Of a stretch of DNA of 64,000 nt, positions 40,868 to 56,013 are shown one piece after another. The notes below the pieces were generated by a model. It searched no databases and was not told the origin of the DNA. It worked only from the letters and a program-made list of their open reading frames with translations. The stretch is from Bacteroidota bacterium. Lineage in GTDB: Bacteria; Bacteroidota; Bacteroidia; NS11-12g; UBA955. The stretch lies in NCBI GenBank assembly GCA_040386935.1, contig JAZKEQ010000006.1, positions 42,482 through 106,481 of the forward strand, given 5' to 3'. The first letter of the stretch is position 1, and each line of letters opens with the position of its first letter. A program made the position numbers and the translations under genes.

Positions 40868-40870
40868 GGG

Positions 40871-40908
40871 GGCGCTGTTAGTCCCGAAACATCGTGAACA
40901 GCTTATAC
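40871..40908. repeat. Hairpin repeat, A arm plus spacer start
   Basis: GGCGCTGTTAGTCCCGAAACATCGTGAACAGCTTATAC. Confidence 0.78.
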
Positions 40909-40949
40909 AATTACAATTGAAGCACAAAGTTCCATGTCTGAATATATTT

Positions 40950-41543
40950 TTATCCGGCTTCGCCTCGCCAAAAGTCAGATATTCTATCGCCATTTATACT
41001 AAAATAATAAACTACAGATGATTCATGGCACCATTCAACATAAAATACATTGACGATAATAAGTCGAAATCTACAATTTTTTTTTTCGAATGAAATAGAA
41101 ATATTGTCTTTGCATGGTTTTGGATCTTTACCCATTGAGGAATCAATATTAAAATTATATTCTTTTTCAAATTCTCTAGTTTTGACAAACTGGTCTTTAT
41201 TTATGTCCTTAATAAATTTGTCAAGGAGCTTTGGTGTAATGTCAAAACTATAGAAAGTGTCCTCGCCATTAGAATAATGAACTTTTCTTATTGAGTCGAT
41301 TTGATGAAATAAGCTAGCTTGAATTTTTTTGTCCTTTAATTTTAAAAAGTCTAATGCTGTTTTGTTACAGGGTATGCTAACTATTTGAGGATCTTCCGTA
41401 GGTACCAAATGTTCTTCATTATGGGTTTTACTAGAGTCAGTAGTTAATTTAATTGTGTCTGAGGCAACAGGAGCTTCTGTTTTTTGATTGTTGGTACAAC
41501 CAATTTGAAGAAATATTGACGCTATAATTATTAATTGACGCAT
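40950..41543 (-). CDS. Hypothetical lipoprotein (array cargo)
   Basis: QIGC lipobox. Confidence 0.65.
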   Translation of the reverse strand: MRQLIIIASIFLQIGCTNNQKTEAPVASDTIKLTTDSSKTHNEEHLVPTEDPQIVSIPCNKTALDFLKLKDKKIQASLFHQIDSIRKVHYSNGEDTFYSFDITPKLLDKFIKDINKDQFVKTREFEKEYNFNIDSSMGKDPKPCKDNISISFEKKNCRFRLIIVNVFYVEWCHESSVVYYFSINGDRISDFWRGEAG

Positions 41544-41555
41544 ACTCGTTTTATT

Positions 41556-41657
41556 ACAGCTGTTTGTACGAAACTTCGGGAACAGCTTATACTACTCCAA
41601 ACATAAGTAATTATTTTTCACTTTTATGTTTCTTGTTACCGCACGGGTAGGGTATTA
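41556..41657. repeat. Hairpin repeat, A arm plus long spacer
   Basis: CGAAACTTCGGGAACAGCTTATACTACTCCAAACATAAG...GGGTAGGGTATTA. Confidence 0.9.
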
Positions 41658-41664
41658 AAATTCG

Positions 41665-42075
41665 TTAGTCCTGTCCTAAAAAATCGAATTTACCTGTAAG
41701 TTTATTTATATAGCCAAATTGACTATTGTTGTATGTAATAGCAATAATCTGTTTGTTCTTGTTATAACTGTCTGTTTCAAAAACAAAGTAAACTATTACT
41801 GGTCTTTGTACTCTATATGCTTCAATTTTTGCATCAACAACAGGGTCTGTTTTCCATAGCTGATTCCCATTTGTGTCAATTGCTGTTATGTAAATTCTTG
41901 CAGTGTCTATGATAAATTTAACACCTGTTGTACTGTCAATTAAGGTGTCTTTTTGAATATTGCTTTTTAGTGTAGAGCGCCCAACATATTGCCCCTTAGC
42001 TATTGTCGGAATTAACAATATAAATAGGAGACTCACTAATGCAATTGTATATCGAATTGGGTTATGTCTTTTCAT
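41665..42075 (-). CDS. Hypothetical exported protein (array cargo)
   Basis: Signal peptide from MKRHNP. Confidence 0.65.
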   Translation of the reverse strand: MKRHNPIRYTIALVSLLFILLIPTIAKGQYVGRSTLKSNIQKDTLIDSTTGVKFIIDTARIYITAIDTNGNQLWKTDPVVDAKIEAYRVQRPVIVYFVFETDSYNKNKQIIAITYNNSQFGYINKLTGKFDFLGQD

Positions 42076-42094
42076 AAGGGCTATTTTTGTTTTT

Positions 42095-42142
42095 GCCGCT
42101 GTTGGTGTTTTGTGCTCAGCTTGAGGGTTGGTCACCAACAGC
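42095..42142. repeat. Hairpin repeat, A arm with long loop
   Basis: GCCGCTGTTGGTG...CACCAACAGC. Confidence 0.88.
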
Positions 42143-42208
42143 TTTTAAATGGTCAGGGTTATGTGCATTCGGTATAAGTTTTCCTACTATTTTTGATTCC
42201 ATGGGTTT

Positions 42209-42478
42209 TTAGGCTTCCAATGCTATAATTTTTTCAGCAATATTCAAACTATGTTCCATATTGCTCGACAGGCCCATTCTATCTGTTACTACTAAGTCAA
42301 GAAATTTAGCTATTTCTGTTTTGGTAGCACCTTTTATTTTCAACTGATAAACTTGAGGTAAATAGCCGTAGTATTCATCTCTCGCATTTTTTTTATCATC
42401 GTTCACTCCTATCGGATCCCAATCATTCCAAAGGATTTCATCAATTAATTTATAAAGTTTAGAGTTTTTAGTAATCAT
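42209..42478 (-). CDS. Small DUF1871-like protein
   Basis: ILWNDWDPIGV..RDEY..Y. Confidence 0.65.
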   Translation of the reverse strand: MITKNSKLYKLIDEILWNDWDPIGVNDDKKNARDEYYGYLPQVYQLKIKGATKTEIAKFLDLVVTDRMGLSSNMEHSLNIAEKIIALEA

Positions 42479-42492
42479 TTTATTCGATTGTT

Positions 42493-42595
42493 TTACACTA
42501 CTCCAAACTTAAGTATTTATTTTTCACTTTTGTATTTCTTGTTACCGTATGGGTAGGGTATTATTGTTCCCGAAGGTTCAGGACCAACATTGATG
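42493..42595. repeat. Hairpin repeat, long spacer plus B arm
   Basis: TTACACTACTCCAAACTTAAG...ATTGTTCCCGAAGGTTCAGGACCAACA. Confidence 0.9.
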
Positions 42596-42608
42596 AATAT
42601 GCCATTTG

Positions 42609-43181
42609 TCAGCGAGTGTTTTTTAGAGTCTCATCGCACTTATCAAAAATTATTTTACTTTTCACAAATGGAATTTCGCATTGGTAAACAGTGTCTCGTT
42701 CTTCAGTAATTTCAACTTTTTTGATGAAAATAGGTATAAAGCCATATTCACTCAGTTCATATTTCATGAGCGGTCCACCTGCAAACCCTTGGTCGCGTTG
42801 GTATTCTATTTTATACTTATTGATGTTCCATTTGTTTTCAACAGTTAGTGAACCTGATAATACATCCATTACCATAAAAAAACTAAGTATAAGGAAAAGT
42901 AGTCCGGAAATTATAGCCGCTGAAATGATTTTTGGTGTTTTTGCCTCAATTTGTCTTGAATATAATGCGTAAGCACTACCTAGCCCCATAAGCCCTAATA
43001 ATGGATAAACCCATGAGGCGATATATGAATAACCAAATAAGATGGGAGAGAACAAAATAAGCGATATTATTAAAGTGTACACTATCGTTTTTTTTGTCGA
43101 CATATAGTCGAACGCCAGTCCTAATAATGGGAAGGCAAATAGGATAAAAAGTTGTTTTCCATGTTCAAATAACCAAATCAT
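42609..43181 (-). CDS. Hypothetical membrane protein (array cargo)
   Basis: Four TM segments; QGFAGGP. Confidence 0.65.
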   Translation of the reverse strand: MIWLFEHGKQLFILFAFPLLGLAFDYMSTKKTIVYTLIISLILFSPILFGYSYIASWVYPLLGLMGLGSAYALYSRQIEAKTPKIISAAIISGLLFLILSFFMVMDVLSGSLTVENKWNINKYKIEYQRDQGFAGGPLMKYELSEYGFIPIFIKKVEITEERDTVYQCEIPFVKSKIIFDKCDETLKNTR

Positions 43182-43204
43182 TGTTGTGTAATATTAAATG
43201 TTTT

Positions 43205-43313
43205 GTCGCTGCCAGTCTCGAAACTTAGGGAACAGCATATACTACTCCAAACATAAGTATTTATTTTTCAATTTTGAATTATTGTCCCCGAAGGTATGTT
43301 ATCAATAATGGCG
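43205..43313. repeat. Hairpin repeat, complete short-spacer variant
   Basis: A arm, CCAAACATAAG spacer, CCGAAGGTATGT..CAATAATGGCG. Confidence 0.88.
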
Positions 43314-43350
43314 AAATCACCCGGCCTAACGTGTAGCCCTTGTTATGCTC

Positions 43351-43947
43351 TTATTTTTCTGTCATTCTACCCAATCTGTTAATTTTTATAGTCTTAACAA
43401 AGTGATTGAATGTATCCATTATCATTTCTTTAGCACCTATTCTTTCTCGATAATCTACATGGTCAAAAGCGATAGTATTATTATTAATTATATTTTTATT
43501 AATTGTATAAGCTCTACCATTATCATACATGGTGGATATGCCAATGTAGTAGGTGTCTATTAATTTTGATGTTGAATCGTGTGTACAAAGAAACATTTGC
43601 TCGGACGTACTGGTATTTGCCAATATGGTGACTGTTATCCCTTTTCCCGGCTTCATATTAACCTTGTTTGCCATTGTTATTCTTCTTTCCTTTACAGTAT
43701 CAAGAATACCGGGATAATATTTGTCATAATCAAAATTGACTACACCTTCTTCCGGTAGGTTTTCAACTCCGCCATTTACAAATGAGGGTTGCCCGTTCAA
43801 TGGTTTTTTTGTTGAGTCGAGATTAATAAGTTGACTTTTTTTTAATGATTCAATTTGTGAGGAATCATTGCTATTAATTGAGCGGTCATTACTTATGTTA
43901 CATCCCATGAGTAGGAGGAGAGGAGCTAAGATATAGAGTGTTTTCAT
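43351..43947 (-). CDS. Hypothetical lipoprotein (array cargo)
   Basis: LMGC lipobox. Confidence 0.65.
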   Translation of the reverse strand: MKTLYILAPLLLLMGCNISNDRSINSNDSSQIESLKKSQLINLDSTKKPLNGQPSFVNGGVENLPEEGVVNFDYDKYYPGILDTVKERRITMANKVNMKPGKGITVTILANTSTSEQMFLCTHDSTSKLIDTYYIGISTMYDNGRAYTINKNIINNNTIAFDHVDYRERIGAKEMIMDTFNHFVKTIKINRLGRMTEK

Positions 43948-43954
43948 GGTTTAA

Positions 43955-43988
43955 TTATTGTTGCTGAAGTTTAGTGGCTAATAATAGC
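43955..43988. repeat. Hairpin repeat, degenerate B arm
   Basis: TTATTGTTGCTGAAGTTTAGTGGCTAATAATAGC. Confidence 0.55.
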
Positions 43989-43992
43989 TTAA

Positions 43993-44565
43993 TTAACCGC
44001 TGATGAATCTTCCATTAAAGCCGAGTTCATATTTATTGTCACTGAAGTCTAATAAGCTAATGTAAGTGTCGTGCATTACAAATGCTTCTTGCTCATTGTT
44101 CTCATCGGTATTTACGATGATATCTCTCAGCCCCTCTGACCAAATTATTTCTCCTGTATGGCTGAGTCGGGTTACTGTTAACTCGCCATGTGTGAATAGC
44201 CCATTGTCTGCTTTATAAATACCAAAGCAAACTGCCATATCTACTTCGGTTATCCAATTGAGGGCCAGGTCAGGCAGTGATAAGCTGAATACATTAACAC
44301 CACAGCAAACAAAAATGGCATTACCGGCTATAACAGCTGATTGCTCGTGTATTGTGGTACCACCGGATGCACATATAAGCGCACTTTTATAAAGTTGATT
44401 GTCTTCAAAAATTTTAATAGCATGTTTACTGCCCTTTCCTTCATTGGCTTTATAAACCAAGTCATAATTGGAATTGTTATCTGCCGAATTGTTTCCCAAT
44501 GTTTCGACATCTGATAATTCAATTACATATTTGTCAAAGTTTAATATCAATTTGAATTTGTCCAT
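43993..44565 (-). CDS. Hypothetical protein (array cargo)
   Basis: GGT.IH, L.LP.L.L.W, HGEL.V.RL. Confidence 0.65.
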   Translation of the reverse strand: MDKFKLILNFDKYVIELSDVETLGNNSADNNSNYDLVYKANEGKGSKHAIKIFEDNQLYKSALICASGGTTIHEQSAVIAGNAIFVCCGVNVFSLSLPDLALNWITEVDMAVCFGIYKADNGLFTHGELTVTRLSHTGEIIWSEGLRDIIVNTDENNEQEAFVMHDTYISLLDFSDNKYELGFNGRFISG

Positions 44566-44596
44566 TTTGCTAGCTTGCAATTTATGAATATTTTTT

Positions 44597-44651
44597 ATCG
44601 CTATTGGTGTTTTTTACCCATTCTTGCAAAATTTCTGGGCCAACAATGGCG
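44597..44651. repeat. Hairpin repeat, collapsed A/B hybrid
   Basis: ATCGCTATTGGTG...GGGCCAACAATGGCG. Confidence 0.75.
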
Positions 44652-44691
44652 ATATTACTCAAAAAAAATGAATAAGCTTTCAGAATTTTTT

Positions 44692-44843
44692 GCCGCTGTT
44701 TGTGTTTTTGTGCCTTGCCTGTGTGTTGGTCACCAACAGCACTTACCACCTCAAACATAAGTATTTATTTTTCAATTTTGTGTTTCTTGTAACCGTATGG
44801 GTAGGGTCGTATTGTTCCCGAAGGTTCGGGACCAATAATGGTT
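44692..44843. repeat. Hairpin repeat, complete long form
   Basis: GCCGCTGTT...CACCAACAGC, spacer, ATTGTTCCCGAAGGTTCGGGACCAATAATGG. Confidence 0.92.
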
Positions 44844-44863
44844 GAAATTTCTTAAACACTCAC

Positions 44864-45505
44864 TTATAATGTCGTTTTAGCATCTGCTTTTCGCCCATAG
44901 AAGTAAGATATTTTATTTTCAACATCATCGTAGGTTACAGGTTGTTGTTGCTTATTAAATTCAAAGTAGCTCAATAAACCAAAGTCGCCCGAACACATGG
45001 CCGTGTGGGCAAGCAAAATACTTGAAATTGTTAACGCCCAATTTGTATTTGAAAAAAATAGAAACACAATTAAAGTAGTGGTGATAATGATAAATGGCGC
45101 TAGCGCTACTATTTCAAATTCTTTTTTATTGGCCACAAACTTGTCTGCCAGGGCCATAAAGTAAAATTTTTTAAGGTTGGCGCCATACGATGTGTTGGTG
45201 GCGCCTTGCGATTTGTAGGCCAATACATGGATGTATTCGTGCAATGGAAGTAATGCAAATGCAATGGCAAGGCCGTACGAAAATTGAGTAAAACGGCTGC
45301 CAAAGCTATAATTGGGCATACCATAACCCTGAGCAAAAAAGTAGCCAACCAGTGCAAATGCAAAGATGTTGGCCGTATAATAAAGCGCTTTATATTTTGT
45401 TCGTTTTTTTAAATATTCCCTTATGAAGGGCACAAGTTCTTTATGTCCTAACTGGTTGAGCAGTACATAGCCGTTTTGCGCTAATTGATCCGGTTTTATA
45501 TTCAT
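44864..45505 (-). CDS. DUF3267-like membrane zincin peptidase
   Basis: HEYIH, ALAPF, C.GDF. Confidence 0.75.
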   Translation of the reverse strand: MNIKPDQLAQNGYVLLNQLGHKELVPFIREYLKKRTKYKALYYTANIFAFALVGYFFAQGYGMPNYSFGSRFTQFSYGLAIAFALLPLHEYIHVLAYKSQGATNTSYGANLKKFYFMALADKFVANKKEFEIVALAPFIIITTTLIVFLFFSNTNWALTISSILLAHTAMCSGDFGLLSYFEFNKQQQPVTYDDVENKISYFYGRKADAKTTL

Positions 45506-45517
45506 TTTTATAGGCTT

Positions 45518-46315
45518 TTAAGTTTTATACGTTATTTCTTTTTTGTCTTTATTCGCTTTTAATAAAGGGCGGCCTTGTAATGCCTGAATAAGTGTAAACA
45601 GTGCCAATAATGCATATACAATGGAAAGGCCTATGGTTAATTTTGTATTCTTCAATATAAAATACGAAAGCAATGGCAATAGTTGAAGGGCATGCATGCC
45701 TATAAAGTGTGAAACTCTTAAATCGCCTACGGTCTTGCTCCAGCCTACAATGAACCAATTAGAATTATCGTTGAGCGCGCCAACACTGTGATTTAATCTT
45801 GCTCCCATGGCAAAGCCTTCAAAAGAAAATATGACGAACATAATAATACCTAATCGAATGCCCCATACATAATAATCAGGTAAATTGGGGAATTCGAATT
45901 TGAAAAATAAGTAGCCAATATATGCGGTGTACAGGGTAACTGCAGTGGCCGCTAATGCCATGAGGGTATATAAATAGGCATAAGCCTGGGTTGAAGTATT
46001 GTAATGCGACAGTTGGCCCCTGCCGGCTTGAAAAGCGATGTAGAAAATCTCGAAACTCCATAACACAACAACTGTTAGATTGAACAACTTGATATTAAAT
46101 TCGGGCAAATAATAGCAATACCAAGCCATGGTCCACGAGTATACCCCAAGCGAAAGGGCAAATTTAAAGGGCTTATACCAGGCATTGACATTGTACACCT
46201 GTGTGGTAGTAACTTTTGAAAGTATTAAAAATGCAATGGATAAAACAATACAGATGAACCCGAAGTAAAACAGTACTTCATTTCGATGTTTTAATTGTTG
46301 AATAAAGTCTATCAT
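45518..46315 (-). CDS. Hypothetical multi-pass membrane protein
   Basis: W.KPFKFALS, QAGRGQ.SHYN, GDLRVSHF.G.HALQ. Confidence 0.75.
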   Translation of the reverse strand: MIDFIQQLKHRNEVLFYFGFICIVLSIAFLILSKVTTTQVYNVNAWYKPFKFALSLGVYSWTMAWYCYYLPEFNIKLFNLTVVVLWSFEIFYIAFQAGRGQLSHYNTSTQAYAYLYTLMALAATAVTLYTAYIGYLFFKFEFPNLPDYYVWGIRLGIIMFVIFSFEGFAMGARLNHSVGALNDNSNWFIVGWSKTVGDLRVSHFIGMHALQLLPLLSYFILKNTKLTIGLSIVYALLALFTLIQALQGRPLLKANKDKKEITYKT

Positions 46316-47091
46316 TATTGTATACCGGCTAAATTCTTTTTTATCTTCATCATTAATTTATCAGGTGTTATTCTTGGTAAATTGCTCAGTAGCCAATTCA
46401 TAAAACCGACAATTGTTTTGCCTTTGCCATACAAAAATAATTGAACACCGGCTTTTGCTACAACAGCCGAAGGCATTGGTTTGTTTGCACGCATAGCCTT
46501 GGTTTTGCGCATTGCTGTGGTGTGGAAGGGTGTTTCTACCGTACCCGGACAAAGGGCAGTAACTATGACTCCTGTGCCCTGTAATTCGGCCGCCACTGTT
46601 TCTGTAAATGCCAACACAAAACTTTTAGTGGCTGAATACACCGCATAGTATGGAAAGGGTAGAAATGACAGCAATGAGGCTACATTCATGATGCGCCCCT
46701 TTCCGGCTTTTACCATATCGGCTGCCAGCAACTTTGTAAGGCCTACCAATGTGGTAATATTTACAGCTATCATGGCTTCAATTGTACTTAAGGGCATATT
46801 TACAAAATGGCCATAATCACCAAACCCGGCATTGTTGATTAAGCCTGTTACTTTGAAATTGTGTGTCTTTAATTCATTGTATAAATCCTGTGCTGAATTG
46901 GGTTCTGCTAAATCATACAGCATATACACGACATCTATGTTGTATTGGTCTATCAATTGTTTTTGCAGTATTTCTAACTTGTCTTTGCTGCGGGCCACTA
47001 AAATTAAATGGTGTTTTTTGGCTGCTAATTGTTGGGCAAGTTCATAGCCTATGCCGGAACTGGCGCCAGTTATTAAAGTAAATTCTTTCAT
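46315..47091 (-). CDS. Short-chain dehydrogenase/reductase
   Basis: TGASSGIG, NNAG, YSATK. Confidence 0.92.
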   Translation of the reverse strand: MKEFTLITGASSGIGYELAQQLAAKKHHLILVARSKDKLEILQKQLIDQYNIDVVYMLYDLAEPNSAQDLYNELKTHNFKVTGLINNAGFGDYGHFVNMPLSTIEAMIAVNITTLVGLTKLLAADMVKAGKGRIMNVASLLSFLPFPYYAVYSATKSFVLAFTETVAAELQGTGVIVTALCPGTVETPFHTTAMRKTKAMRANKPMPSAVVAKAGVQLFLYGKGKTIVGFMNWLLSNLPRITPDKLMMKIKKNLAGIQ

Positions 47092-47102
47092 GGGGAGTAG
47101 TT

Positions 47103-47639
47103 TTAGTGTTCTGATTTTGTTTTCAATTCTTGAAGCCATAGCGCATGCAATCGCTCCAATTTTTTCCCTTGAAAAGTTTTTTCGAAAAATGTTAACCAAC
47201 CATTTTGCAATTCTTCTGTGATCACTCTGCAGCCGTTTGCAGTAGGTACAATCCACCATACATGATAGCCTCTTATACTGGGCTTTTTGCTTTCCCAGGC
47301 CAGTAGTCGGTAGGGGTCAAATTGTAGAATGGTAGATTGAAATTTTAATCCCATAGTTTTCCAATTGAAAACAGCATTGGCCTGCAATAAAGTATCGGTA
47401 GGTGGTGATAAGGTAACTTTTTGGGCCCCTTTGTACCATTGTGGCCACTTTAATGCATCAATGAGATGGCCCCAAACAGTAGCTGGAGTCGCCTTGATTT
47501 CAATTTCATTGTGTACAAAAAATTGACTGATTGATGGATGGTACTCAGTGGGCCACTGAATGGAGTCTGTGCTATTTTGACCCGATAAGCAGGACATCGA
47601 GATAGCTGCATACGCTAAAATAATAAATAACCTTGTCAT
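47103..47639 (-). CDS. SRPBCC/polyketide cyclase-like exported protein
   Basis: HNEIEIKA.P..VW..L..WPQWY. Confidence 0.75.
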   Translation of the reverse strand: MTRLFIILAYAAISMSCLSGQNSTDSIQWPTEYHPSISQFFVHNEIEIKATPATVWGHLIDALKWPQWYKGAQKVTLSPPTDTLLQANAVFNWKTMGLKFQSTILQFDPYRLLAWESKKPSIRGYHVWWIVPTANGCRVITEELQNGWLTFFEKTFQGKKLERLHALWLQELKTKSEH

Positions 47640-47722
47640 TGTAATTTGTTTTAAATTATAATGCAAAGGTCTAATGACCAATGGTGTGGAAACGATAACA
47701 AATGTTTAGATTTTTACATGGG

Positions 47723-48286
47723 TCAGCTTTTTTTAAGGCGACTTAAGTGAATAGGTGTAATGCCTAAATAAGATGCAATCATGTGCTGAGGTACCCGATT
47801 GTGAATATTGGGAAATACTTCTGTAATACTGTCGTATCGCTCTTTGGGTGTTCTTACGTATCTGTTTTTGATGCGGTCGTCTTGGTAGATAAAATAATAT
47901 TCAGCTATCAGTCGTCCCATTTTTTGCCCTTCGGTTAAATGTGTGTAACCCCATTCTATGGCTGAGCGTGGCAATACAACGACCTCTGTATCTTCTAACG
48001 CCTGCAGGCTGTAAAATGAGGGTTGTTGTTGAATAAAGTTTGAATAATCTGCAATGAACTGATTCTCGAGCGCAAAGTGGATGGTGTGTTCTGTGCCCTC
48101 GTGGTCGGTTATTAAAACACGTATAAGGCCGCGATTGATGAAGTATATATTGTTGGGAATTGCATCGGGTGCACTTATTATGGTCTGTCGCTTAAAAGTT
48201 TTGGTAATGGTTTGATCTAAGAAGTTTTTGAGTTCATCTTCTGAAACGTTAATCATCTGTTTCATTACCCTTCTAATTTGGTCCAT
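47723..48286 (-). CDS. Crp/Fnr family regulator
   Basis: YFI..GLIR, QALED, IASYLGITP.HLSR. Confidence 0.9.
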   Translation of the reverse strand: MDQIRRVMKQMINVSEDELKNFLDQTITKTFKRQTIISAPDAIPNNIYFINRGLIRVLITDHEGTEHTIHFALENQFIADYSNFIQQQPSFYSLQALEDTEVVVLPRSAIEWGYTHLTEGQKMGRLIAEYYFIYQDDRIKNRYVRTPKERYDSITEVFPNIHNRVPQHMIASYLGITPIHLSRLKKS

Positions 48287-48385
48287 TTATTTATAGTAGT
48301 GTTGGGTTATTATATCGCAACACTATAATTAACATTTGCCAATTTGTTTTTGTTTTATTGGTGCCGATTGCTAACTCCCTGCCAT

Positions 48386-48415
48386 AAAAAGTCGGAACAT
48401 TGCTGCCCCGACTTT
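48386..48415 (-). terminator. Intrinsic terminator
   Basis: AAAGTCGG/CCGACTTT stem with T run on minus strand. Confidence 0.65.
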
Positions 48416-48436
48416 AATTCGAATTAAATTTTTTAA

Positions 48437-48853
48437 TTAGTTGATAATCCTTTTGTCTTTGGCTACAAATTTTGCAAAGGCTAACAATGCACCTGTTACC
48501 ATAATGTTTCTGAAAAAATTAACCATTTCTAATTCTTTCTCTCTTGCTATATCAGCCGTCATGTTTTCTGTGCCCAATTCGAACCCCATTGCTCTTGGTA
48601 AGTGAACCAATACAGCCATTAATATTACATACAATGCCATTAGGGTGTAGGCGAGTTTATCATATTTGCCAATAACTGCACTGATAATAAATAATAGGAT
48701 GCATACCAAAGTGAAGTAGTTCCAAAAGTAGGGCAGTGGCAAATAATCAGGTACGAATGAAGCGCCAACTTCGGGTTTGCCAAGATGCAAGCCCACATAC
48801 AGTAAAAATGAAAGTGGAAAAATATATTTCCCTGAATTTAAGAGTTTGTCCAT
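48437..48853 (-). CDS. DoxX-like membrane protein
   Basis: FVP.YLP..YFW.YFT, LVHLP. Confidence 0.6.
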   Translation of the reverse strand: MDKLLNSGKYIFPLSFLLYVGLHLGKPEVGASFVPDYLPLPYFWNYFTLVCILLFIISAVIGKYDKLAYTLMALYVILMAVLVHLPRAMGFELGTENMTADIAREKELEMVNFFRNIMVTGALLAFAKFVAKDKRIIN

Positions 48854-48864
48854 GTTCTGAGTGG

Positions 48865-49221
48865 TTAATTGGTTGGGAATGGAACCAGTGGTCGAATTTC
48901 AACCGAACTGTTGGGGTATTTTAGAATAGGGCAGGTTTTGCTCCATTCTTTAACTTCCTCAATATTGTCGGATTTACAGATTAAAAAACCCGAAACCAAT
49001 ACGGTGTCTGATTCTTTGTGCGGCCCCGCTGCCCCACCGGTGGCGGTAACAATTGATGCATCATCATATTGAATGGGGGCTGTATGCACTAATTTGCCTT
49101 GCATGGCGATATGGCCTATCCACGATTGCCACTTGGGCATATCGTTCGCCATATCTTCTGTTGTTGCTAAGTAGCCATTTTCGGCACTTGCATTGCGAAA
49201 TAATAATAAATACTCTGTCAT
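48865..49221 (-). CDS. YciI family protein
   Basis: YLLLFR, GP.KE, CPIL...SVEIRP. Confidence 0.8.
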   Translation of the reverse strand: MTEYLLLFRNASAENGYLATTEDMANDMPKWQSWIGHIAMQGKLVHTAPIQYDDASIVTATGGAAGPHKESDTVLVSGFLICKSDNIEEVKEWSKTCPILKYPNSSVEIRPLVPFPTN

Positions 49222-49299
49222 TTTTTTAATGTTTAATTGTGAATAATGGAACAAAATTCAGCAATTAAAATACCTTGAACGATGACAAAAGTCTATGTT

Positions 49300-49869
49300 T
49301 TATAGTTGCGCTTTTAATCGGCTATAAACATCTTTGTTGATGCCTAAATAGGAAGCTATCAATTTGCTTGAAAGTCTTGTCATCAACATTGGGCGATAAT
49401 TCATCAGCCATTTTATTCTTTCTAATGCCGATAGAGAAACGAAAGTATTGATGCGGTAAACCGAGTTGGCATAAGATGCTTCAAGGATTTGTTTATACAC
49501 CTTATCAAACTGCGGTACGGATTGCATTAAGGATTGAAATGAATTTCTGTCAATTGCAAATAGTTCACAGGGCTCCACTGTTCTTATGTTTTCTGTTGCA
49601 GGAGTTCCATTGCCAAAACTCAATAATTCAGAACACCAATTGTCTTCAGTAACAATATCTCTTGTAGTTTCATTTAAATCGCTATCGTAACTATAGACCT
49701 GTAGGCACCCTTTGGCTATAAAGTAAACATATCGGCAGGCATCTCCCTGTTGTAAAAGTTGCTCATTACGCTTAGTGGTTATATGTTTAAATTTTGATAG
49801 TACAGTGTCAAGGTTGTCGATGTCGTTGCCAAGTCTGTTTATTATATGATTTTTTAAAATGTCTATCAT
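49300..49869 (-). CDS. Crp/Fnr family regulator
   Basis: YFIAKGCL, IASYLGI...YSRL. Confidence 0.9.
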   Translation of the reverse strand: MIDILKNHIINRLGNDIDNLDTVLSKFKHITTKRNEQLLQQGDACRYVYFIAKGCLQVYSYDSDLNETTRDIVTEDNWCSELLSFGNGTPATENIRTVEPCELFAIDRNSFQSLMQSVPQFDKVYKQILEASYANSVYRINTFVSLSALERIKWLMNYRPMLMTRLSSKLIASYLGINKDVYSRLKAQL

Positions 49870-49890
49870 ATGGTGTCTGATTTTTATTGC

Positions 49891-49941
49891 TATTGTTGCT
49901 GATTAGCGAATGTGCCAGGAGTTATGAAAGCAATAATGGCG
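49891..49941. repeat. Hairpin repeat, degenerate B arm
   Basis: TATTGTTG...CAATAATGGCG. Confidence 0.6.
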
Positions 49942-50021
49942 AAATAGTTAAGTTACCACTAAGCCGTTTACAGGGCAAATTAACTAAGCGGTATGAATAG
50001 TCAACTCTGCCTTGCTGTTTT

Positions 50022-51425
50022 CTATTCCCGTACAAATTTTCTGGTTATTGTTGTCATGGAATCTAGGTCTTGCAATTTTAGTAGATAAAAACCTGCCGGT
50101 AAATCAGAAACATTAAGTGTATGGCTGTTCTTATTTTGTAATACCAACTGTCCGAAAATGTCAAATACTGTTACTTCATAGTTTGTAATAGTTGAGCTTA
50201 TATTGAGGGTATTGGTGGTGGGATTAGGGAAAATATTGATTGAATTATCAAGGTTCATTTCGGAAAGACTTGAAGTGTTATTCGTCAAAAAGTTGTAAAT
50301 ATCCCTTTGAAGAAACTCTTGACCAATTTTCATATAGTTGCCGGCCGAACACATGTAAATATCTAAGCTAGGAATGTAACACAGCATAGCACCATAGCCA
50401 AAAGCTGTTCCGGTATGTCCATAACCATATATTGGTCCGTTATTATAACTTTTAAATTGTATGATACCGTGACCATAAGCACCCATGTCGCCTGTATTCG
50501 TTACTACGGTTTTCATGGTGTCAAGCCATTTTGAATTGATGAGTTGCCCTGTAAATAGGGCTTTGTGAAATTTAATTAAGTCGGCTGTATTAGACCAAAT
50601 GTCAGCAGCGCCATAGCCCCATGAATTACTGGCTTCGGTAAAGTCGTATAACGAGTCGGGTTCTAGCCCGCCATTTTCAGCATTAACACCGCCTACAGGA
50701 TAGAACGAGCCTTTCAAATAGCCCCGCATAAAACTGCCGGTAGGAGTGGTGTTAAAATCGGTATTTGTAAGTTGGAGTGGTGAAATGATGCTGTCGGTAA
50801 TAAAGTTTTGATAGGTGGTTCCTGATACTGATTTAATTATTTCAGCCAATAAATAAAAGTTGGCATTGCTATAATAATAGTTGCCTACGCCCTGAGGATT
50901 AGCATAACTCCAAAGCCAAAGTGAGTCAAGCGGAATATCATCATATCGCTTCATGTATATCCAATAGTTTAGCCGACCTTGAAAATCGCTTTGTGGATCA
51001 GTGATTCCGGAGGTGTGACTGAGTAAATGCTTAACTTTTATTTTTTGATAATTGTCGAACCCCTGCACTACGGAAAGTGGTAGGTAGGTGCTAATTGGCG
51101 CATTAAAACTTACCTGTCCGTTTTGAATGAGTTTGAAAATAGCCACAGTAGTGAACATTTTGGTAATACTGGCAACTTTAAATTTTTTGTCAGCCAGCAT
51201 CGTTATTGCGGGCTTTATAGATGCAAGTCCTGCAGAATTTTCATAAACCCAGGCTCCGGGCTTTTCTATGCGTATTACATGGCCGGGTACAAATCCTTGA
51301 AATTGGGTAACATGGGTTTGAAATAATCCATCAATACCACTTTTGATATTTGCCGGTGGTGTTTGACCAAAAGCCCAACTTGAGATTGTAATGGTAAGTA
51401 TTGTGAGTATGGTAGAGCCTTTCAT
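50022..51425 (-). CDS. Serine hydrolase (beta-lactamase/S12-like) with T9SS type A CTD
   Basis: SITK, LLSHTSG, YSN, GHTG; FPNPT..LPAGFY..RKFVRE. Confidence 0.88.
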   Translation of the reverse strand: MKGSTILTILTITISSWAFGQTPPANIKSGIDGLFQTHVTQFQGFVPGHVIRIEKPGAWVYENSAGLASIKPAITMLADKKFKVASITKMFTTVAIFKLIQNGQVSFNAPISTYLPLSVVQGFDNYQKIKVKHLLSHTSGITDPQSDFQGRLNYWIYMKRYDDIPLDSLWLWSYANPQGVGNYYYSNANFYLLAEIIKSVSGTTYQNFITDSIISPLQLTNTDFNTTPTGSFMRGYLKGSFYPVGGVNAENGGLEPDSLYDFTEASNSWGYGAADIWSNTADLIKFHKALFTGQLINSKWLDTMKTVVTNTGDMGAYGHGIIQFKSYNNGPIYGYGHTGTAFGYGAMLCYIPSLDIYMCSAGNYMKIGQEFLQRDIYNFLTNNTSSLSEMNLDNSINIFPNPTTNTLNISSTITNYEVTVFDIFGQLVLQNKNSHTLNVSDLPAGFYLLKLQDLDSMTTITRKFVRE

Positions 51426-51489
51426 TTCTTTTTTTAATTAAACAATTTCAATTTGTTTTTGTTTATGGCTGTCTTTTTTTAAAATGCAT

Positions 51490-51589
51490 TTATACTACCC
51501 CAAACGTAAGCATTTATTTGTACTGCTATGTTGCTTGTACTGTATGGGTAGGGGTGGTTGTTCCCGAAGGTTAGGGGCCAACAATGGCG
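51490..51589. repeat. Hairpin repeat, spacer plus B arm
   Basis: CCAAACGTAAG...GGGTAGGG...TGTTCCCGAAGGTTAGGGGCCAACAATGGCG. Confidence 0.88.
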
Positions 51590-51592
51590 GAT

Positions 51593-51988
51593 TTACGAAG
51601 TTGGCAATTGTGTGCCAATTGACCACATGTTGCCTGCAAAGTCTTTAAATGTGGCACGTCTGTCAGGGTCGCCTTCGCGTTGTTTGGGTTGTTCAATTAT
51701 TTCACAACCGGCTTTGATAGCTTTGTCAAATATTTCATCAACATTGGTAACATACACATGCATTACCAAAGGAACTGGAGGAAATTTGTCGGAAGAATTT
51801 CCCAGCATAATAACAGAATCGTCTATTTGTATTTCAGCATGCATAATAGTGCCATCCGGCATATCATACCGTCTCAATTCTTTTGCATCAAAGATGGTTT
51901 GCATCAAAGCAATGAATTTTTCAGCACCATCTACTATAAAGTATGGTGAAACTGAATTGTAATTGGTTGGCTTAAAGTCTTTATTCAT
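51593..51988 (-). CDS. VOC family protein
   Basis: SVSPYF, HAEIQI.DS, KDFAGN.W. Confidence 0.88.
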   Translation of the reverse strand: MNKDFKPTNYNSVSPYFIVDGAEKFIALMQTIFDAKELRRYDMPDGTIMHAEIQIDDSVIMLGNSSDKFPPVPLVMHVYVTNVDEIFDKAIKAGCEIIEQPKQREGDPDRRATFKDFAGNMWSIGTQLPTS

Positions 51989-52018
51989 ATTTTTAGGGTT
52001 ACTTGTTTGTTGTTTATG

Positions 52019-52127
52019 TTTGCTGTTGGATCCGAAACTTCGGGAACAGCTTACACTACTCCAAACTTAAGTATTTATTTTTCAATTTTGTGTTATTGTT
52101 GCCGAAGGTATGTGACCAACAATGGCG
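52019..52127. repeat. Hairpin repeat, complete short-spacer variant
   Basis: GCTGTTGGATCCGAAACTTCGGGAACAGC...CCGAAGGTATGTGACCAACAATGGCG. Confidence 0.92.
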
Positions 52128-52159
52128 GAATAAATACTGCTATAATATAGTGGCCCTAT

Positions 52160-52930
52160 TCATCTTTGTGGCTGGTTTGCTTTTATAGGTTTCGTGAACT
52201 TTATTCGATCTCCTGTCCAGGGTGTTAAATTACCTGAACTATCCATAAATGAAAACTCAACTTCATAATTGTCACTGTCGTCAAAGTCAAATGCACCAGA
52301 ACACATCCCATGTCCAACACATACATTGTCACCACCTATAGAAATGTAGTAAGTTGTTTCCAGTCCGGTTTTTAAATTTTTTACCGTTGTCTTTACAATT
52401 AGGTCTGAACTGTCTGTTGCGGGATTACTAAATACAACGTGAATTGAAGGGCCGCAACCGTAATGGATAAGTGTCTTTTTTAATTCTTTTGGAATGCCGG
52501 TAAGTATTGGCTTTATGGTATCCCTTCCGGCAACAACTGTATATGTCACCGGCTCATATTTCTGAGTTATTTTATTATACTTATCAAAACTTTCATATTC
52601 CGGCAAACTGTCAATATGCATTGTGTATTCAAGTCCTACTTCCAATTCTTTTTCGGGTTTTAAAACTGCTTGTGTTAAATAAAATTGTCCAACACAAATT
52701 TCGATTACATTCAATTTAATTTTCTTGTTCCCGTTTTTAAGATAAATATTGTTTTTTTTATTAAGGTTTAAAATTATGCCCTGACTTTCAGCATAGCCGT
52801 CAAGAATAAAAATTGAATTTTGTTTGATTGTTGGTCCACTTGGGAAAATCCAAAGTCCTGTTCCCCTACAATCAGCAAGTAAGGAAACAGACCAAAATAG
52901 TCCGATTAATATTGTAAGTAGATGTTTCAT
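52160..52930 (-). CDS. Hypothetical secreted protein (array cargo)
   Basis: Signal peptide; YGCGP, GHGMCSGAF. Confidence 0.7.
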   Translation of the reverse strand: MKHLLTILIGLFWSVSLLADCRGTGLWIFPSGPTIKQNSIFILDGYAESQGIILNLNKKNNIYLKNGNKKIKLNVIEICVGQFYLTQAVLKPEKELEVGLEYTMHIDSLPEYESFDKYNKITQKYEPVTYTVVAGRDTIKPILTGIPKELKKTLIHYGCGPSIHVVFSNPATDSSDLIVKTTVKNLKTGLETTYYISIGGDNVCVGHGMCSGAFDFDDSDNYEVEFSFMDSSGNLTPWTGDRIKFTKPIKANQPQR

Positions 52931-53108
52931 GATGTGTGCATTGTGATATTAACTATCGAGTGTTTCTCCAACTTGGAAAGAATTACGAAGGTTTTTTATT
53001 TTACTTATTCTACTATGCAATATACCAAAATTTTACAATAACTCCATTTTTATATAAGCCATATCACTCTCCCTATTACTTATCTGCAGTTATGTGCAGC
53101 TCTTCTTA

Positions 53109-54269
53109 TCATTGTTTAATAACCTTAAATGTTTTTTGGTCAATGGTTATAAAGTAAATGCCATTTTCAAACTGTGAAAAATCAATGCTTAAAGAGTTAG
53201 TATCTGATGATTTGCCTGTCAAAATAGTTTGTCCTTGCAATGTCTGAACAGTATACTTTTTATCAAATAAATTACCGGGGGAATGAATATTGACGACCGA
53301 AAATGTGGGGTTTGGATAAATTGAAAAATCGCTGTTGGCTTTAATATCATTGATGCCTGAAGTAACTGCAGATGTGAGCATATAGGTCCATACCGAATTG
53401 TTTATTGCGCTGAATTTAGTGGTTGTATTGTGATAAAGAAGTGCAATTCCGGGTGCTTGATTGGTATATAAACAATGTGACTTACTGTAAGGAGTGCTTG
53501 AAATATCTACATTGATGGTGTCGTATAAGGGGTAAATGCCAAGACCTTTAAGGTTCGTTAATTGTTTGTTAAATGCCACTATTTCATCTGAAATATTGAG
53601 ATAGGCAAAGTGCTTATTCATGGCAGTAATACCTGAAGTCCTTAACCAATTGGCAGCATTAGAATAATAGGTGCTGTAATCATTGGGGCTTGAAAACATA
53701 AGCACTCTTTCTACATCATTGAATTTAGCAAAGTAACAAGCATGTCCACCCCCTTGCGAATGCCCGCCAACGGCTATTTTAGACCAGTTGAGTGTAGTCG
53801 GGTTAATTAAATATTGATTCCAGTTTTGTGTAGGAAAGGTAGTGTTCAAATAATGGATCAACTTAAGGATTCTGGTATAGATGCAATTCAAAGTATCAAC
53901 CGTTACATCAGGACTTAATGGTGTGCCATAGCAAACTTCTTGTCTATATTTATTGAAAACCATGCTGTCAGTACTGTTGGCCAAGCTTGCAGCTGCTACT
54001 GAATTAGGATACGAAAGGTTGATGACGTCATAGCCAAGTTTTCCGGCAAAATTGCTAATGGTCTGGTAAGTTGAAGTATTGCTACCTGTTCCGCCAATAA
54101 ATAGGAAGAGTTTATTAATAGTCGTGGTCGTATTTCTAACTACCATATTGCTGTCTTGAACGGCAGAATAACTAGTGTCTGTCTGAATAGGTTTTACATA
54201 GAATGTATTAATTTGTGAAAAGCAGGTGCTTGTGGTCGCAAATAAAATAATTGTAAAAATGGTTTTCAT
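53109..54269 (-). CDS. Alpha/beta hydrolase-fold protein with T9SS type A CTD
   Basis: GHSQG nucleophile elbow; YPNPT..GIYF..KVIKQ. Confidence 0.82.
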   Translation of the reverse strand: MKTIFTIILFATTSTCFSQINTFYVKPIQTDTSYSAVQDSNMVVRNTTTTINKLFLFIGGTGSNTSTYQTISNFAGKLGYDVINLSYPNSVAAASLANSTDSMVFNKYRQEVCYGTPLSPDVTVDTLNCIYTRILKLIHYLNTTFPTQNWNQYLINPTTLNWSKIAVGGHSQGGGHACYFAKFNDVERVLMFSSPNDYSTYYSNAANWLRTSGITAMNKHFAYLNISDEIVAFNKQLTNLKGLGIYPLYDTINVDISSTPYSKSHCLYTNQAPGIALLYHNTTTKFSAINNSVWTYMLTSAVTSGINDIKANSDFSIYPNPTFSVVNIHSPGNLFDKKYTVQTLQGQTILTGKSSDTNSLSIDFSQFENGIYFITIDQKTFKVIKQ

Positions 54270-54333
54270 TGAGTCGTTTTTTATGCTTGGGCCTTACTTA
54301 CATATAGTCATGTTTTTTCTTCCTATATCCTCA

Positions 54334-54378
54334 CGCAATATACCCAAAATCGCAATTATCCCAATTCTCCTTCAAAAG
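54334..54378 (-). promoter_or_regulatory. Repeated promoter module (type C)
   Basis: CGCAATATACCCAAAATC..ATTATCCCAATT matches 39999; minus strand TTG-N19-TATATTGC. Confidence 0.7.
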
Positions 54379-54400
54379 ATTACCGGTATTAATCGGCTGT

Positions 54401-55039
54401 TTATTTCACTCTCACAAACGTTTCGTTGTCGCTAAAGCCGCCATTTTTGATGAATGCTTTGAACTGTTTTTTGGTGGGTGTAAACTGGTATTGTGAAACA
54501 GTGTCATGGGGTGTTTCGGTTATTTCTTTCAGATTGTCAATGTCTGTTGGTACAGCAATACTGCTTATTGTCAATTGCCCTTTTGATAATTCCATTTTTT
54601 TGACTTGCCAGCTCTCCACATTATAGCGGTTGTTAAGGAAATAATACCCCTTGAATTTTCTAACAACATTGTCATCATTCATTTCAAACAGTGTTTCAAT
54701 GTAATGAATGTGCGCGACTAAACTGTCGCCAACACGCTTTATTGGGGTCTTTTCATTTATTCTTACATCTATCAGGGTATCACCCGAAATTCTGGAATTA
54801 CTGTCCAATTGATTGGGATGCAGGGTGTAATCGTAGTCGTAAATCTTTTGAATAATGTTGTTGTCAATTGTAAGTGTTGAATTATCCAGCAGACTTAGGT
54901 AGTGTCCCTGCAATCGCTTGGGAAATTCCGATAAATTATCAGTGTTTGCCGGTTGCGGCTCATTAAACGTAACCGGTGGTTGGCAGGCCATCAGGCTGAT
55001 TAAAAAGACGACTACAGTTGTTAATTGAAGTTTTCTCAT
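54401..55039 (-). CDS. Hypothetical lipoprotein (array cargo)
   Basis: LMAC lipobox; F.EPQP, KFKGYYFLN. Confidence 0.7.
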   Translation of the reverse strand: MRKLQLTTVVVFLISLMACQPPVTFNEPQPANTDNLSEFPKRLQGHYLSLLDNSTLTIDNNIIQKIYDYDYTLHPNQLDSNSRISGDTLIDVRINEKTPIKRVGDSLVAHIHYIETLFEMNDDNVVRKFKGYYFLNNRYNVESWQVKKMELSKGQLTISSIAVPTDIDNLKEITETPHDTVSQYQFTPTKKQFKAFIKNGGFSDNETFVRVK

Positions 55040-55182
55040 GGGTTTGTTGGCTTTGTGGTGGAACTTAGATGGGCTCATTTTCCGATGTAACGGACCTTGG
55101 GTGCTAAAAGTATATTGGTCTTTATATTTTCAACCAACGTTAGCTATTTACCGATAAACGATAGGCGAATTGGTTATTGAAG

Positions 55183-55212
55183 ATTCTTGCCGAAGTTTTG
55201 GGTCCAACTAAT
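55183..55212. repeat. Degenerate B arm overlapping the end of the YhcG-like fragment
   Basis: TTGCCGAAGTTTTGGGTCCAACTAAT resembles TTCCCGAAGGTTCGGGACCAACAAT. Confidence 0.5.
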
Positions 55213-55269
55213 TTCTCTCACCAGTGGTGAGAGTTTTGGAAAGTCTTTGTATGACTCATAAAACTGTTT
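55195..55269 (-). pseudogene. Internal fragment of a YhcG/DUF1016-like gene
   Basis: Translates KQFYESYKDFPKLSPLVREISWTQN; no start or stop; family recognised by eye. Confidence 0.75.
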
Positions 55270-55272
55270 TTT

Positions 55273-55424
55273 GCCGCTGTTGGTCCCGAAACTTCGGGAA
55301 CAGCTTTTACCACCTCAAACTTAAGTATTTATTTTTCACTTTTATATTTCTTGTAACCGTATGGGTAGGTTGTTATTGTTGGTGAGCCACTACGCGGGCT
55401 AAACGCGAACACACAACAATGGCG
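55273..55424. repeat. Hairpin repeat, complete long form
   Basis: GCCGCTGTTGGTCCCGAAACTTCGGGAACAGC, spacer, ATTGTTGG...CAACAATGGCG. Confidence 0.92.
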
Positions 55425-55425
55425 A

Positions 55426-55491
55426 AAAACTTGGTAAACCTGCTTGCATTTTAAAGTGGTCAAATTCCACCACTTTAAAATTCGGATTATT
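55426..55491 (-). pseudogene. Internal fragment of a KilA-N-like gene
   Basis: Translates NNPNFKVVEFDHFKMQAGLPSF; fills the gap between two repeats. Confidence 0.75.
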
Positions 55492-55493
55492 TT

Positions 55494-55525
55494 GCCGCTG
55501 TTGGACCCGAAACCTCGGGAACAGT
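55494..55525. repeat. Hairpin repeat, A arm (last copy seen)
   Basis: GCCGCTGTTGGACCCGAAACCTCGGGAACAG. Confidence 0.88.
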
Positions 55526-55547
55526 TTGCAATTGCAAAAAATCTTTT

Positions 55548-55940
55548 CTAACGTCCCCTATACAGCTCGTTATATTCTTTTACATGATGGGGGAATTCCT
55601 CTTCAAAGAAAGGATAAGGCACACCTTCTATGGTAATTTCAAATTCATTACTGTCCATACCGCTGATTTGATTGCCCATGCCTTTGATTTCTATGCCCTG
55701 CTCATTTTTAACAACTAAACTGTTGATGTTTTCGGTAAATAAGAGCTTTTGTTCAGGGAAATCAGTCACCAGTTCAATGTTGTTTTTTGTGCAATACGAT
55801 TGAAAGAAGTCGTAACCCGAAGTAATCGTTATGAAATGGATGATCCCAAAAACAACGCCCATGGGTGCATCTGCTTTTTCTAATTCAGTTGTGCCAATTT
55901 TCTGGTCATCAAGCAATATGTCGTAAATTTTCTTTTTCAT
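55548..55940 (-). CDS. Hypothetical protein
   Basis: D.PMGVVFG, YPFF.EEFPHH. Confidence 0.65.
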   Translation of the reverse strand: MKKKIYDILLDDQKIGTTELEKADAPMGVVFGIIHFITITSGYDFFQSYCTKNNIELVTDFPEQKLLFTENINSLVVKNEQGIEIKGMGNQISGMDSNEFEITIEGVPYPFFEEEFPHHVKEYNELYRGR

Positions 55941-56013
55941 ATTTTACCCTACGCAATATAATGGTATTTGCAATTCTTCCAATCTAAATATAGGCTTCAA
56001 AAGGATTGATGTT

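Follow-up and report, generated by a model that had tools for sequence, protein, structure and literature searches.

A palindrome-bearing remnant of a DUF1016/YhcG gene between inverted repeat arms in a Bacteroidota genome, probably left by decay in place

Genes of the DUF1016/YhcG family, listed by PADLOC under the candidate name PDC-S02 (Pfam PF17761 and PF06250), and genes encoding KilA-N proteins (PDC-S22) occur as guests of defence islands, where they nest in type I restriction-modification (R-M) and similar loci. Among the genes reported to be over-represented next to the targets of type I R-M inversions are DUF1016 and RhuM-type genes (PMC9881135). A KilA-N-domain protein is also at the heart of the BstA-aba system, in which an abortive-infection protein is accompanied by a 63-bp cognate self-immunity DNA that overlaps its own gene and is able to act without protein encoded in cis (Owen et al., 2021, PMC8585504). 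Palindromes within coding sequence that are kept perfect have been described in the mitochondria of Nematomorpha, where template switching is proposed to convert one arm to the sequence of the other (Mikhailov et al., 2019, PMC6649704). Finally, the rAID-1 arrays of Bacteroidales begin at the 5' end with an XerD-like recombinase, behind which low-GC genes run in one direction, separated by a repeated intergenic sequence (Ross et al., bioRxiv 10.1101/471110).

The locus that we describe here lies in a window of 64,000 nucleotides, the whole stretch of DNA that was analysed, from a Bacteroidota bacterium. It consists of two short gene relics embedded in the arms of a repeat unit and comprises the following features:

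54401..55078, minus strand: downstream gene of 225 aa with no Pfam family, in whose upstream region the first relic lies
55183..55208, minus strand: solo B-like arm (nhmmer arm profile, E 0.019), which has its first 7 nt, minus-strand GTTGGAC, in common with the relic, these being the 3' junction
55202..55269, minus strand: relic of a DUF1016/YhcG (PDC-S02) gene, 68 nt (blastn, tblastn, Pfam DUF1016_N)
55215..55233, no strand assigned: perfect palindrome with 9-nt arms and a 1-nt centre, encoding LSPLVRE (sequence; intact genes of genomes G004 and G093)
55267..55304, minus strand: A foot of a repeat unit (nhmmer E 1.7e-10; family D5; unit alignment), whose outer A/T run at 55267-55272 overlaps the 5' end of the relic and forms its 5' junction
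55305..55372, minus strand: unit core with a TAAGTTTG box at 55316-55323 (families D2 and D3; unit profile E 1.7e-40)
55373..55429, minus strand: variant B arm, in which a GC-rich hairpin takes the place of the interior (unit alignment)
55426..55491, minus strand: relic of a KilA-N (PDC-S22) gene in sense orientation, between arm A' and the variant B arm (homology to the gene of genome G029)
55449..55480, no strand assigned: palindrome of the KilA-N relic with 12-nt arms and an 8-nt centre, the conserved coding palindrome of that family
55490..55524, minus strand: arm A', an A-type arm that stands alone right behind the stop codon of gene 55548-55940 (nhmmer E 3.1e-9; family D5)

The described systems match this locus in part only. 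As in the guest genes of defence islands, the donor types of both relics belong to candidate defence families, with scores of E 2.9e-131 for PDC-S02 and, in case of the KilA-N gene of G029, E 1.9e-129 for PDC-S22; unlike in pseudogenes of such guests, only 68 nt are left of the DUF1016 gene, species-specific arms are found on both sides and a Pfam scan detects no R-M genes near the relic. With integron and rAID-1 arrays, the locus has in common co-directional small accessory genes, repeated hairpin-forming spacers and odd fragments between repeats, whereas the window contains neither an integrase nor an XerD-like recombinase, no immunity families are detected in a Pfam scan of 40 ORFs and each unit seems to carry a putative promoter box of its own. 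The ends of integron attC sites are ordered RYYYAAC ... GTTRRRY, which is the reverse of the arm cores found here, where GTTGG precedes CCAAC on either strand. Compared to promoter-carrying MITEs of the Correia-like type, inverted arms are present, full units number only about 10, of which 7 are located within 14 kb, and the ends are A/T runs at which a duplication is unreadable. The likeness to the Nematomorpha palindromes resides in arms that both encode protein and in a symmetry that persists while the sequence drifts; the difference resides in their number, length and position, since many long and scattered palindromes come and go there, whereas a single short one (8-16 bp arms) is found here at a fixed codon position of a whole prokaryotic family in many phyla. 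With BstA-aba, the locus shares a short allele-specific DNA element inside a KilA-N defence gene. Unlike the palindromes in the relics, aba is described as spanning the gene start, as ending in direct repeats and as requiring high copy number in trans; conversely, the cognate gene types are absent from the present genome.

The first relic was initially noticed by eye, in a sequence-only reading that took it for a 75-bp scrap of a YhcG/DUF1016-like gene. On the minus strand it reads KQFYESYKDFPKLSPLVREISWTQN, with a stop codon seven codons further on. Searches by blastn (E 2.5e-21 when scored against the whole genome) and by tblastn with an intact gene of the same genus (E 5.6e-8, 84.6% over 26 aa) identified the donor type and bear out the assignment, as does Pfam DUF1016_N, which matches the relic peptide at profile positions 73-98 of 137 (E 1.9e-4). 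At 22 bits this match stays below the gathering score of 32.8 bits, since the peptide comprises only 26 residues. The relic corresponds to residues ~78-101 of the 327-aa protein of G004, to whose intact gene it is 92.6% identical over 68 nt; over the same stretch, identities amount to 89.7% for a relic in G017, 89.7% for G093 and 85.3% for G067, and in all four of these close homologues the nucleotide homology ends at 55202 and 55269. The sequence and coordinates of the scrap were thus described correctly, whereas its homologous part is shorter than proposed, the last two codons (Q, N) of the 75-bp piece being repeat-arm sequence. In a DNA search of 40 relatives with positions 55150-55560, the relic was matched in two genomes of the same genus, at 93% in G004, within the intact gene, and at 90% in G017, within a decaying DUF1016 pseudogene with a stop codon. 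Besides the intact copy in G004, the donor type is found as a copy of 91% amino acid identity in another genus (G093) and as decayed pieces in G017, G116, G136 and G137, a distribution indicating that it is mobile, and decayed copies are common in the family searched.

The relic lacks the C-terminal PD-(D/E)xK nuclease domain and an intact frame, with the frame entering arm sequence before it stops, and we found no other pieces of a donor-type gene in this genome, whose assembly is 97.85% complete. As neither window nor genome contains further homology and the frame stops in the arm, the relic is not a gene. The sole full DUF1016 gene of this genome, on contig C43, encodes a paralogue of 36-38% identity with a different palindrome and, as judged by this divergence, is not the donor. 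In a structure model of the donor-type protein, for which a sequence search retrieved no solved structure, the nuclease domain resembles NucS/EndoMS (fold search, E 2.1e-5) and other PD-(D/E)xK enzymes; the fold search matched this domain only and returned nothing for the N-terminal domain.

The proposal that the fragment lies between the A foot of one repeat and a B-arm-like end, to which it is joined by microhomology, held up in each of its parts. Both arms are recovered by profile searches, in case of the B-like end with a profile built from 12 other arm copies, which matches positions 55184-55208 with 16.7 bits and a genome-wide E of 0.019. This arm is similar to an arm variant at 44620-44653 (family D4) and, by our own count, identical to the arm on contig C11 in 22 of 26 bases. 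Donor and A foot have 2-3 bases in common at the 5' junction, and at the 3' junction donor and arm have GTTGG(A/T)C in common. GTTGG corresponds to the Ser-Trp codons of the family and is found once in the 981-nt gene of G004 and once in the 963-nt gene of G067, at nt 293, which is the break; from there on the window tracks the B arm, whereas donor-type genes continue differently. Since the motif is unique in the donor-type gene and located exactly at the break, the microhomology reading of the 3' end is right and the break was sequence-directed. Beyond the B-like arm follows the upstream region of the downstream gene, and a contig from sequencing run X2, 91% identical to the window, departs from it beyond 55185.

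The palindrome, described in the sequence-only reading as perfect and central to the scrap, is present as claimed, with 55215-55233 reading CTCTCACCA-G-TGGTGAGAG. Perfect stems of at least 9 bp with a loop of up to 9 nt occur 348 times in the 3,408,093-nt genome and six times in the window, two of the latter in this 470-nt spacer, so that the palindrome exceeds what chance would give. In the intact genes of G004 and G093 this element is likewise perfect, and it has one mismatch in the G017 relic and shows compensating changes in G067. To place it in the family, we used an unpublished criterion derived in this analysis, by which the palindrome is centred 17-18 nt before an invariant Trp codon, and the palindrome of the relic (9+1+9) falls on this spot. 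From 80 DUF1016 loci fetched from many bacterial phyla and Archaea, 78 genes remained after two were dropped by a filter, and in 59 of them the best palindrome of the whole gene is centred on the spot, with stems of 6-14 bp. A perfect stem at this position, reached by at most 2% of the other 42-nt windows of the same gene, is found in 13 of 28 genes of the bacterial family. The loci are:

L028-L057 and L095-L174: DUF1016 genes surveyed for the palindrome
L035:1747-1788: palindrome of the own DUF1016 gene of this genome on contig C43

The nine central pairs are Watson-Crick pairs in 71-89% of 103 distinct DUF1016 genes and mostly in less than 50% at shifted centres. In an alignment of 104 rows, 78.2% of the cells pair, compared to 56.7% in shuffles, none of 500 of which reached the observed value, and to 30-39% in slid controls. 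Each central pair is realized by three or four pair types, and the encoded peptide varies (LSPLVRE, VQQAVAQ, LQPLVAE and others) while the symmetry of the DNA stays. As judged from these comparisons, a covarying palindrome at a fixed codon position is kept in most of the 103 genes, in Bacteria as well as Archaea; some DUF1016 genes contain a second, similar palindrome ~165 nt downstream. Because intact relatives carry a perfect palindrome and genes throughout the family carry one at the same spot, the alignments indicate that the palindrome of the relic is inherited and was neither made nor chosen by the repeat array. In the model (pLDDT 73.8, pTM 0.42), it encodes a predicted helix of residues 88-95 directly before the helix containing the Trp, in the N-terminal domain. 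By analogy, the template switching proposed for Nematomorpha would provide a ready non-adaptive explanation of such symmetry. G.T mismatches outnumber A.C mismatches in the palindromes of both families (43 vs 27 in DUF1016 and 14 vs 5 in KilA-N genes), a weak bias that leans toward the sense strand and is undecisive between an RNA and a DNA hairpin. Between the relic and G004, none of the 18 palindrome-arm nucleotides and 5 of the other 50 differ, which by our own arithmetic (P about 0.15) is not a significant extra conservation of the arms.

The second relic is located 157 nt from the first. Over 56 nt it shows 91% identity to an interior stretch of a KilA-N gene in G029, which encodes 282 aa and adjoins hsdM; at E<=1e-15, no KilA-N homologue is found in this genome. 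The palindrome at the centre of the relic is shared with the intact gene. In 21 homologues plus the relic, 92.7% of the 13 pairs around a GAATTC/T centre are paired, compared to 69.5% in shuffles (0 of 500 reaching the observed value), and 67 cells are altered on both sides where 21.9 are expected. KilA-N genes of this order (L058-L084) have arms of ~13 bp around GAATTC/T with strong covariation. In the literature searched, including the available parts of PMC9881135 and PMC4316617, we found no description of coding palindromes in DUF1016 or KilA-N genes, and this conserved feature is apparently undescribed.

The history of the KilA-N relic is recorded in a contig of run X2, which originates from a different study. 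This contig matches 55352-55491 with one difference, from within the core through the variant B arm to the end of the relic; at the place taken by arm A' in the window, it continues instead with coding sequence of the KilA-N gene. Since it contains the same 3' junction with a longer piece of the gene, the 3' junction of the relic is the older one and the 5' cut came later, which points to stepwise truncation of a resident gene in place. The same run contains DUF1016 sequences that extend beyond the first relic on both sides, so intact DUF1016 donors exist in the sample. At their B sides, the two relics join the arm at different positions, GTTGG in one case and the outer T-run in the other, which fits microhomology, with or without an enzyme. 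Among fetched loci of the two families (±1.5 kb), none of 30 and none of 27 had a DUF1016 and a KilA-N gene side by side, so that the pair is not simply one decayed block of two genes. A Pfam scan for other relics in 138 stop-to-stop peptides from 18 array spacers returned three hits only, the DUF1016 relic (recovered at E 4.1e-4), a copy of a pdxJ tail and a spurious Holin_BlyA match on a unit; its sensitivity is low, since the KilA-N relic was missed.

N-terminal relics of KilA-N genes that end within a few bases after the palindrome are also found in other genomes, in G029, twice in G150 and in G052, with matches stopping at query residues 78-88. The short copies are:

L012:1045-1299, minus strand: short KilA-N copy
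L083:1501-1725, minus strand: short KilA-N copy
L084:1501-1760, minus strand: short KilA-N copy
L077:1500-1713, minus strand: short KilA-N copy

Three of the four directly precede a full-length copy with a different palindrome, and at one locus (G150:C38) a palindrome-only scrap is found in between. From this arrangement it looks as if older copies had been overwritten from the palindrome onward, which hints at the flank of the palindrome as a preferred breakpoint in the KilA-N family. For DUF1016 relics, no cluster of breakpoints after the palindrome was established.

The relics are part of a cassette-like island. Between ~33.5 and 55.5 kb, the window contains small accessory genes on the minus strand, including those for a glyoxalase, a beta-lactamase-fold protein with a T9SS tail, SRPBCC proteins and cNMP-binding proteins, and many without a family, which are separated by the repeat unit. 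In gene direction, a unit starts with the B arm directly after the upstream stop, followed by the core with its TAAGTTTG box and the A foot before the next start. Arms A and B represent one ~36-nt sequence in opposite orientations; its stem base is GTTGG...CCAAC, and its interior varies. At E<=1e-3, the arm profile detects 16 sites in the genome, 12 of which are located in this stretch and have themselves been used to build the profile. Full units are found 7 times in the window, all in the same orientation relative to the genes, and 3 times on contigs C76 and C11. Outside this species, the unit family was not encountered in any of the collections searched: 40 relatives yielded only a 24-nt match to the unit core in a DNA search, pattern scans of genome contigs detected 0 loci for the core and two lone palindromes for the arm, and a scan of metagenome contigs for the unit pattern detected three loci that match a 22-mer only. 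No Rfam family reaches its gathering score in the window, and nothing relevant was found at E<=1 in 40500-56000. The genes flanking the relics occur too sporadically in the genus for an empty-site comparison, with homologues in 5 of 33 (54401..55078) and 3 of 33 genomes, G000 included. Runs X3 and X4 contained only short pieces of genes from other organisms.

The TAAGTTTG box at 55316-55323 on the minus strand fits the -7 promoter consensus TAnnTTTG of Bacteroidota, and we take it to be a putative promoter. If it fires, the DUF1016 relic would lie within the 5' leader of the downstream gene, whose product is read as a lipoprotein from its N-terminal sequence. In the predicted fold of the leader RNA (-67.7 kcal/mol, z -4.5), the A foot pairs with the B-like arm and the palindrome forms the tip. 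A scan of 54900-55700 for sigma-70-type promoters and terminators, which is ill-suited to this phylum, found one promoter-like site, with 1.7 expected, and 0 terminators, and none of the RNA runs contained more than 0.05 of the sampled words.

The genome also harbours two Y1_Tnp genes, which are flanked by other GC-rich hairpins and not, as in REP/RAYT systems, by the arm hairpins, for which the profile finds no match within 1.2 kb around either gene. By eye, the GC-rich REP-like hairpins beside the Y1 transposase gene of contig C4 resemble the interior of the variant B arm. These likenesses are located at:

window, 55385-55410: REP-like hairpin
contig C4, about 21540-21720: REP-like hairpins
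contig C11, about 3180-3290: REP-like hairpins

In the related genomes G004 and G017, a different repeat of ~65 nt, which contains TTGTTGGGG, brackets cassette-like genes including the intact DUF1016 gene. It is possibly a sister of the arms described here and is found at:

L010:255-320 and L010:2335-2400: G004/G017 repeat
G017:C11:70485-74559: G004/G017 repeat

In G017, this repeat adjoins the 5' break of the DUF1016 pseudogene. As counterevidence to its own proposal, the sequence-only reading had named relatives with gradual decay of a full gene and breakpoints unrelated to the repeats; in G017 the pseudogene is indeed decaying and contains a stop, yet it adjoins a repeat.

Several further observations concern other parts of the window. 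At the edge of the array, 36299-39898 on the minus strand encodes a SIR2_2-domain protein of 1199 aa (E 3.6e-23), a defence-type gene, and just upstream of a Cro/C1-type HTH gene (40460-40867), positions 40228-40453 are made up of tandem repeats with a period of 21 nt, detected as at least 7 overlapping copies of 100 nt. The pdxJ tail copy (repeat D7, plus strand) is a 110-nt duplicate of the 3' end of pdxJ with 79% identity (36081-36190 versus 33011-33120) and is located 3 kb downstream of the intact gene; it matches positions 194-232 of 234 of the PdxJ profile (E 5.3e-4) and, as judged from this duplication, is the mark of an insertion of ~3 kb with three minus-strand genes at the end of pdxJ. 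Just upstream of an ORF start at 22607, the stretch ~22585-22640 contains a perfect palindrome whose arms measure 12 nt or more and which looks like an operator.

Taken together, the relic is probably a non-coding remnant of a resident cassette gene that was shrunk by microhomology deletions. By this account, a full DUF1016/YhcG gene encoding a PD-(D/E)xK nuclease would once have occupied this locus on the minus strand, with the A foot upstream and the B arm downstream, in this island of inverted-repeat units with putative promoters, where a KilA-N (PDC-S22) gene would have filled the next slot upstream. Both genes would have been trimmed by separate deletions between short direct matches of gene and arm, so that the breaks presumably reflect deletions rather than insertions. 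On the 3' side, the only GTTGG of the DUF1016 gene would have paired off with the GTTGG core of the B arm, and on the 5' side an A-run in the gene would have matched the terminal A-run of the A foot. Today, given an active unit promoter, the relic would be transcribed within the leader of the downstream gene, with the palindrome as tip hairpin, presumably without a function of its own. In favour of in-place decay, no recombinase is at hand, since the array contig C6 carries no tyrosine recombinase gene (PF00589) and the two matches of the genome are located on contigs C50 and C30. Against it, an intact DUF1016 gene between these arms was detected in none of the relatives, so that we infer the full-cassette ancestor. 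The suggestion that the system captures or retains hairpin-containing fragments has to be divided. Retention is borne out by the two recognised foreign-gene relics in the spacer, which both keep their palindrome, whereas capture is not supported, because the palindrome is found family-wide in intact genes, from which the DUF1016 relic inherited it, and because the X2 contig contains a longer KilA-N piece with the same 3' junction, pointing to truncation in place.

What in-place decay leaves to be accounted for is the survival of both palindromes. Random two-sided trimming should rarely spare them, which counts against simple decay: by our own arithmetic the naive chance is ~0.05 for the DUF1016 relic and 0.03-0.04 for the KilA-N relic, or ~0.002 jointly, a value affected by ascertainment, since relics without a recognisable match go unseen. 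As causes for the retention in both relics there remain chance, a hot spot for breakage or insertion at palindromes, and a retained function, which do not exclude each other.

A retained function would imply that the palindrome was kept as a working element, either as a cognate DNA site that titrates, marks or neutralises DUF1016 and KilA-N proteins, or as a hairpin in the RNA that lends stability to transcripts or insulates them from one cassette to the next. We regard this as unlikely, if well worth weighing. It would explain why adjacent relics of two unrelated defence-candidate families, which are not usual neighbours, have both retained the family palindrome against the small joint chance given above, and both palindromes are allele-specific and nevertheless symmetric, as expected for cognate sites. 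The predicted helix that the DUF1016 palindrome encodes just before the Trp helix and, by analogy, the cognate immunity DNA overlapping the bstA gene would be in line with such a role. Conversely, the cognate genes are missing from this genome, which has no KilA-N gene at the threshold given and only the distant DUF1016 paralogue with its other palindrome, and the arms of the relic palindrome show no significant extra conservation. None of the three palindromes has an extra copy in this genome, and to our knowledge binding of the palindrome has never been shown for the DUF1016 family. A single copy would be expected to be insufficient by the standard of aba, of which one chromosomal copy gave no immunity in trans and which has terminal direct repeats and no palindrome (PMC8585504). 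A broader version of the idea, which we consider speculative and rather unlikely, holds by analogy that the palindromes of DUF1016 and KilA-N genes might be allele-specific DNA or RNA sites of the encoded proteins themselves, and that copies without a gene might be kept because they still work, as decoys or immunity marks against matching incoming defence or nuclease proteins, or as recombination sites at which these guest genes, which lack a recombinase, are exchanged and overwritten.

It appears quite improbable that the units or cassettes are mobile and insert next to hairpins, or that coding palindromes are hot spots of breakage or recombination from which incoming DNA overwrites genes. 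The four KilA-N relics in other genomes that end right after the palindrome would be accommodated by such a process, as would the ends of the present relics, 24 nt (KilA-N) and 13 nt (DUF1016) past the palindrome, and the arms themselves, which are hairpins and inverted copies of each other. However, the distances from palindrome to junction vary (8, 13, 24 and 36 nt), the DUF1016 relics show no established cluster after the palindrome, and the arms could be linked to neither a transposase nor a recombinase, other hairpins being found beside the Y1 genes. Moreover, units are few and unseen in other species, and a target-site duplication is not readable at their ends, because these consist of A/T runs. 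Two candidate excision joints in run X1 turned out to derive from other unit copies or repeats and not from excision. A mere chance resemblance to DUF1016, finally, for which only the Pfam score below the gathering threshold could be invoked, is ruled out for practical purposes by the 85-93% nucleotide identity to four homologues over 68 nt at E 2.5e-21, in the same frame and with the family palindrome in place.

By itself, the fragment is an ordinary gene remnant. Together with its neighbour, it constitutes a natural deletion experiment, in which two unrelated defence-candidate genes were shrunk side by side and the palindrome was left in both. The junctions show how short arm matches such as GTTGG direct the loss of genes in a cassette-like island, and the DUF1016 relic isolates a conserved coding palindrome as a minimal element to test. 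If its survival were not due to chance, this would point to the palindrome as the functional core or the recombination site of two very widespread uncharacterised families.
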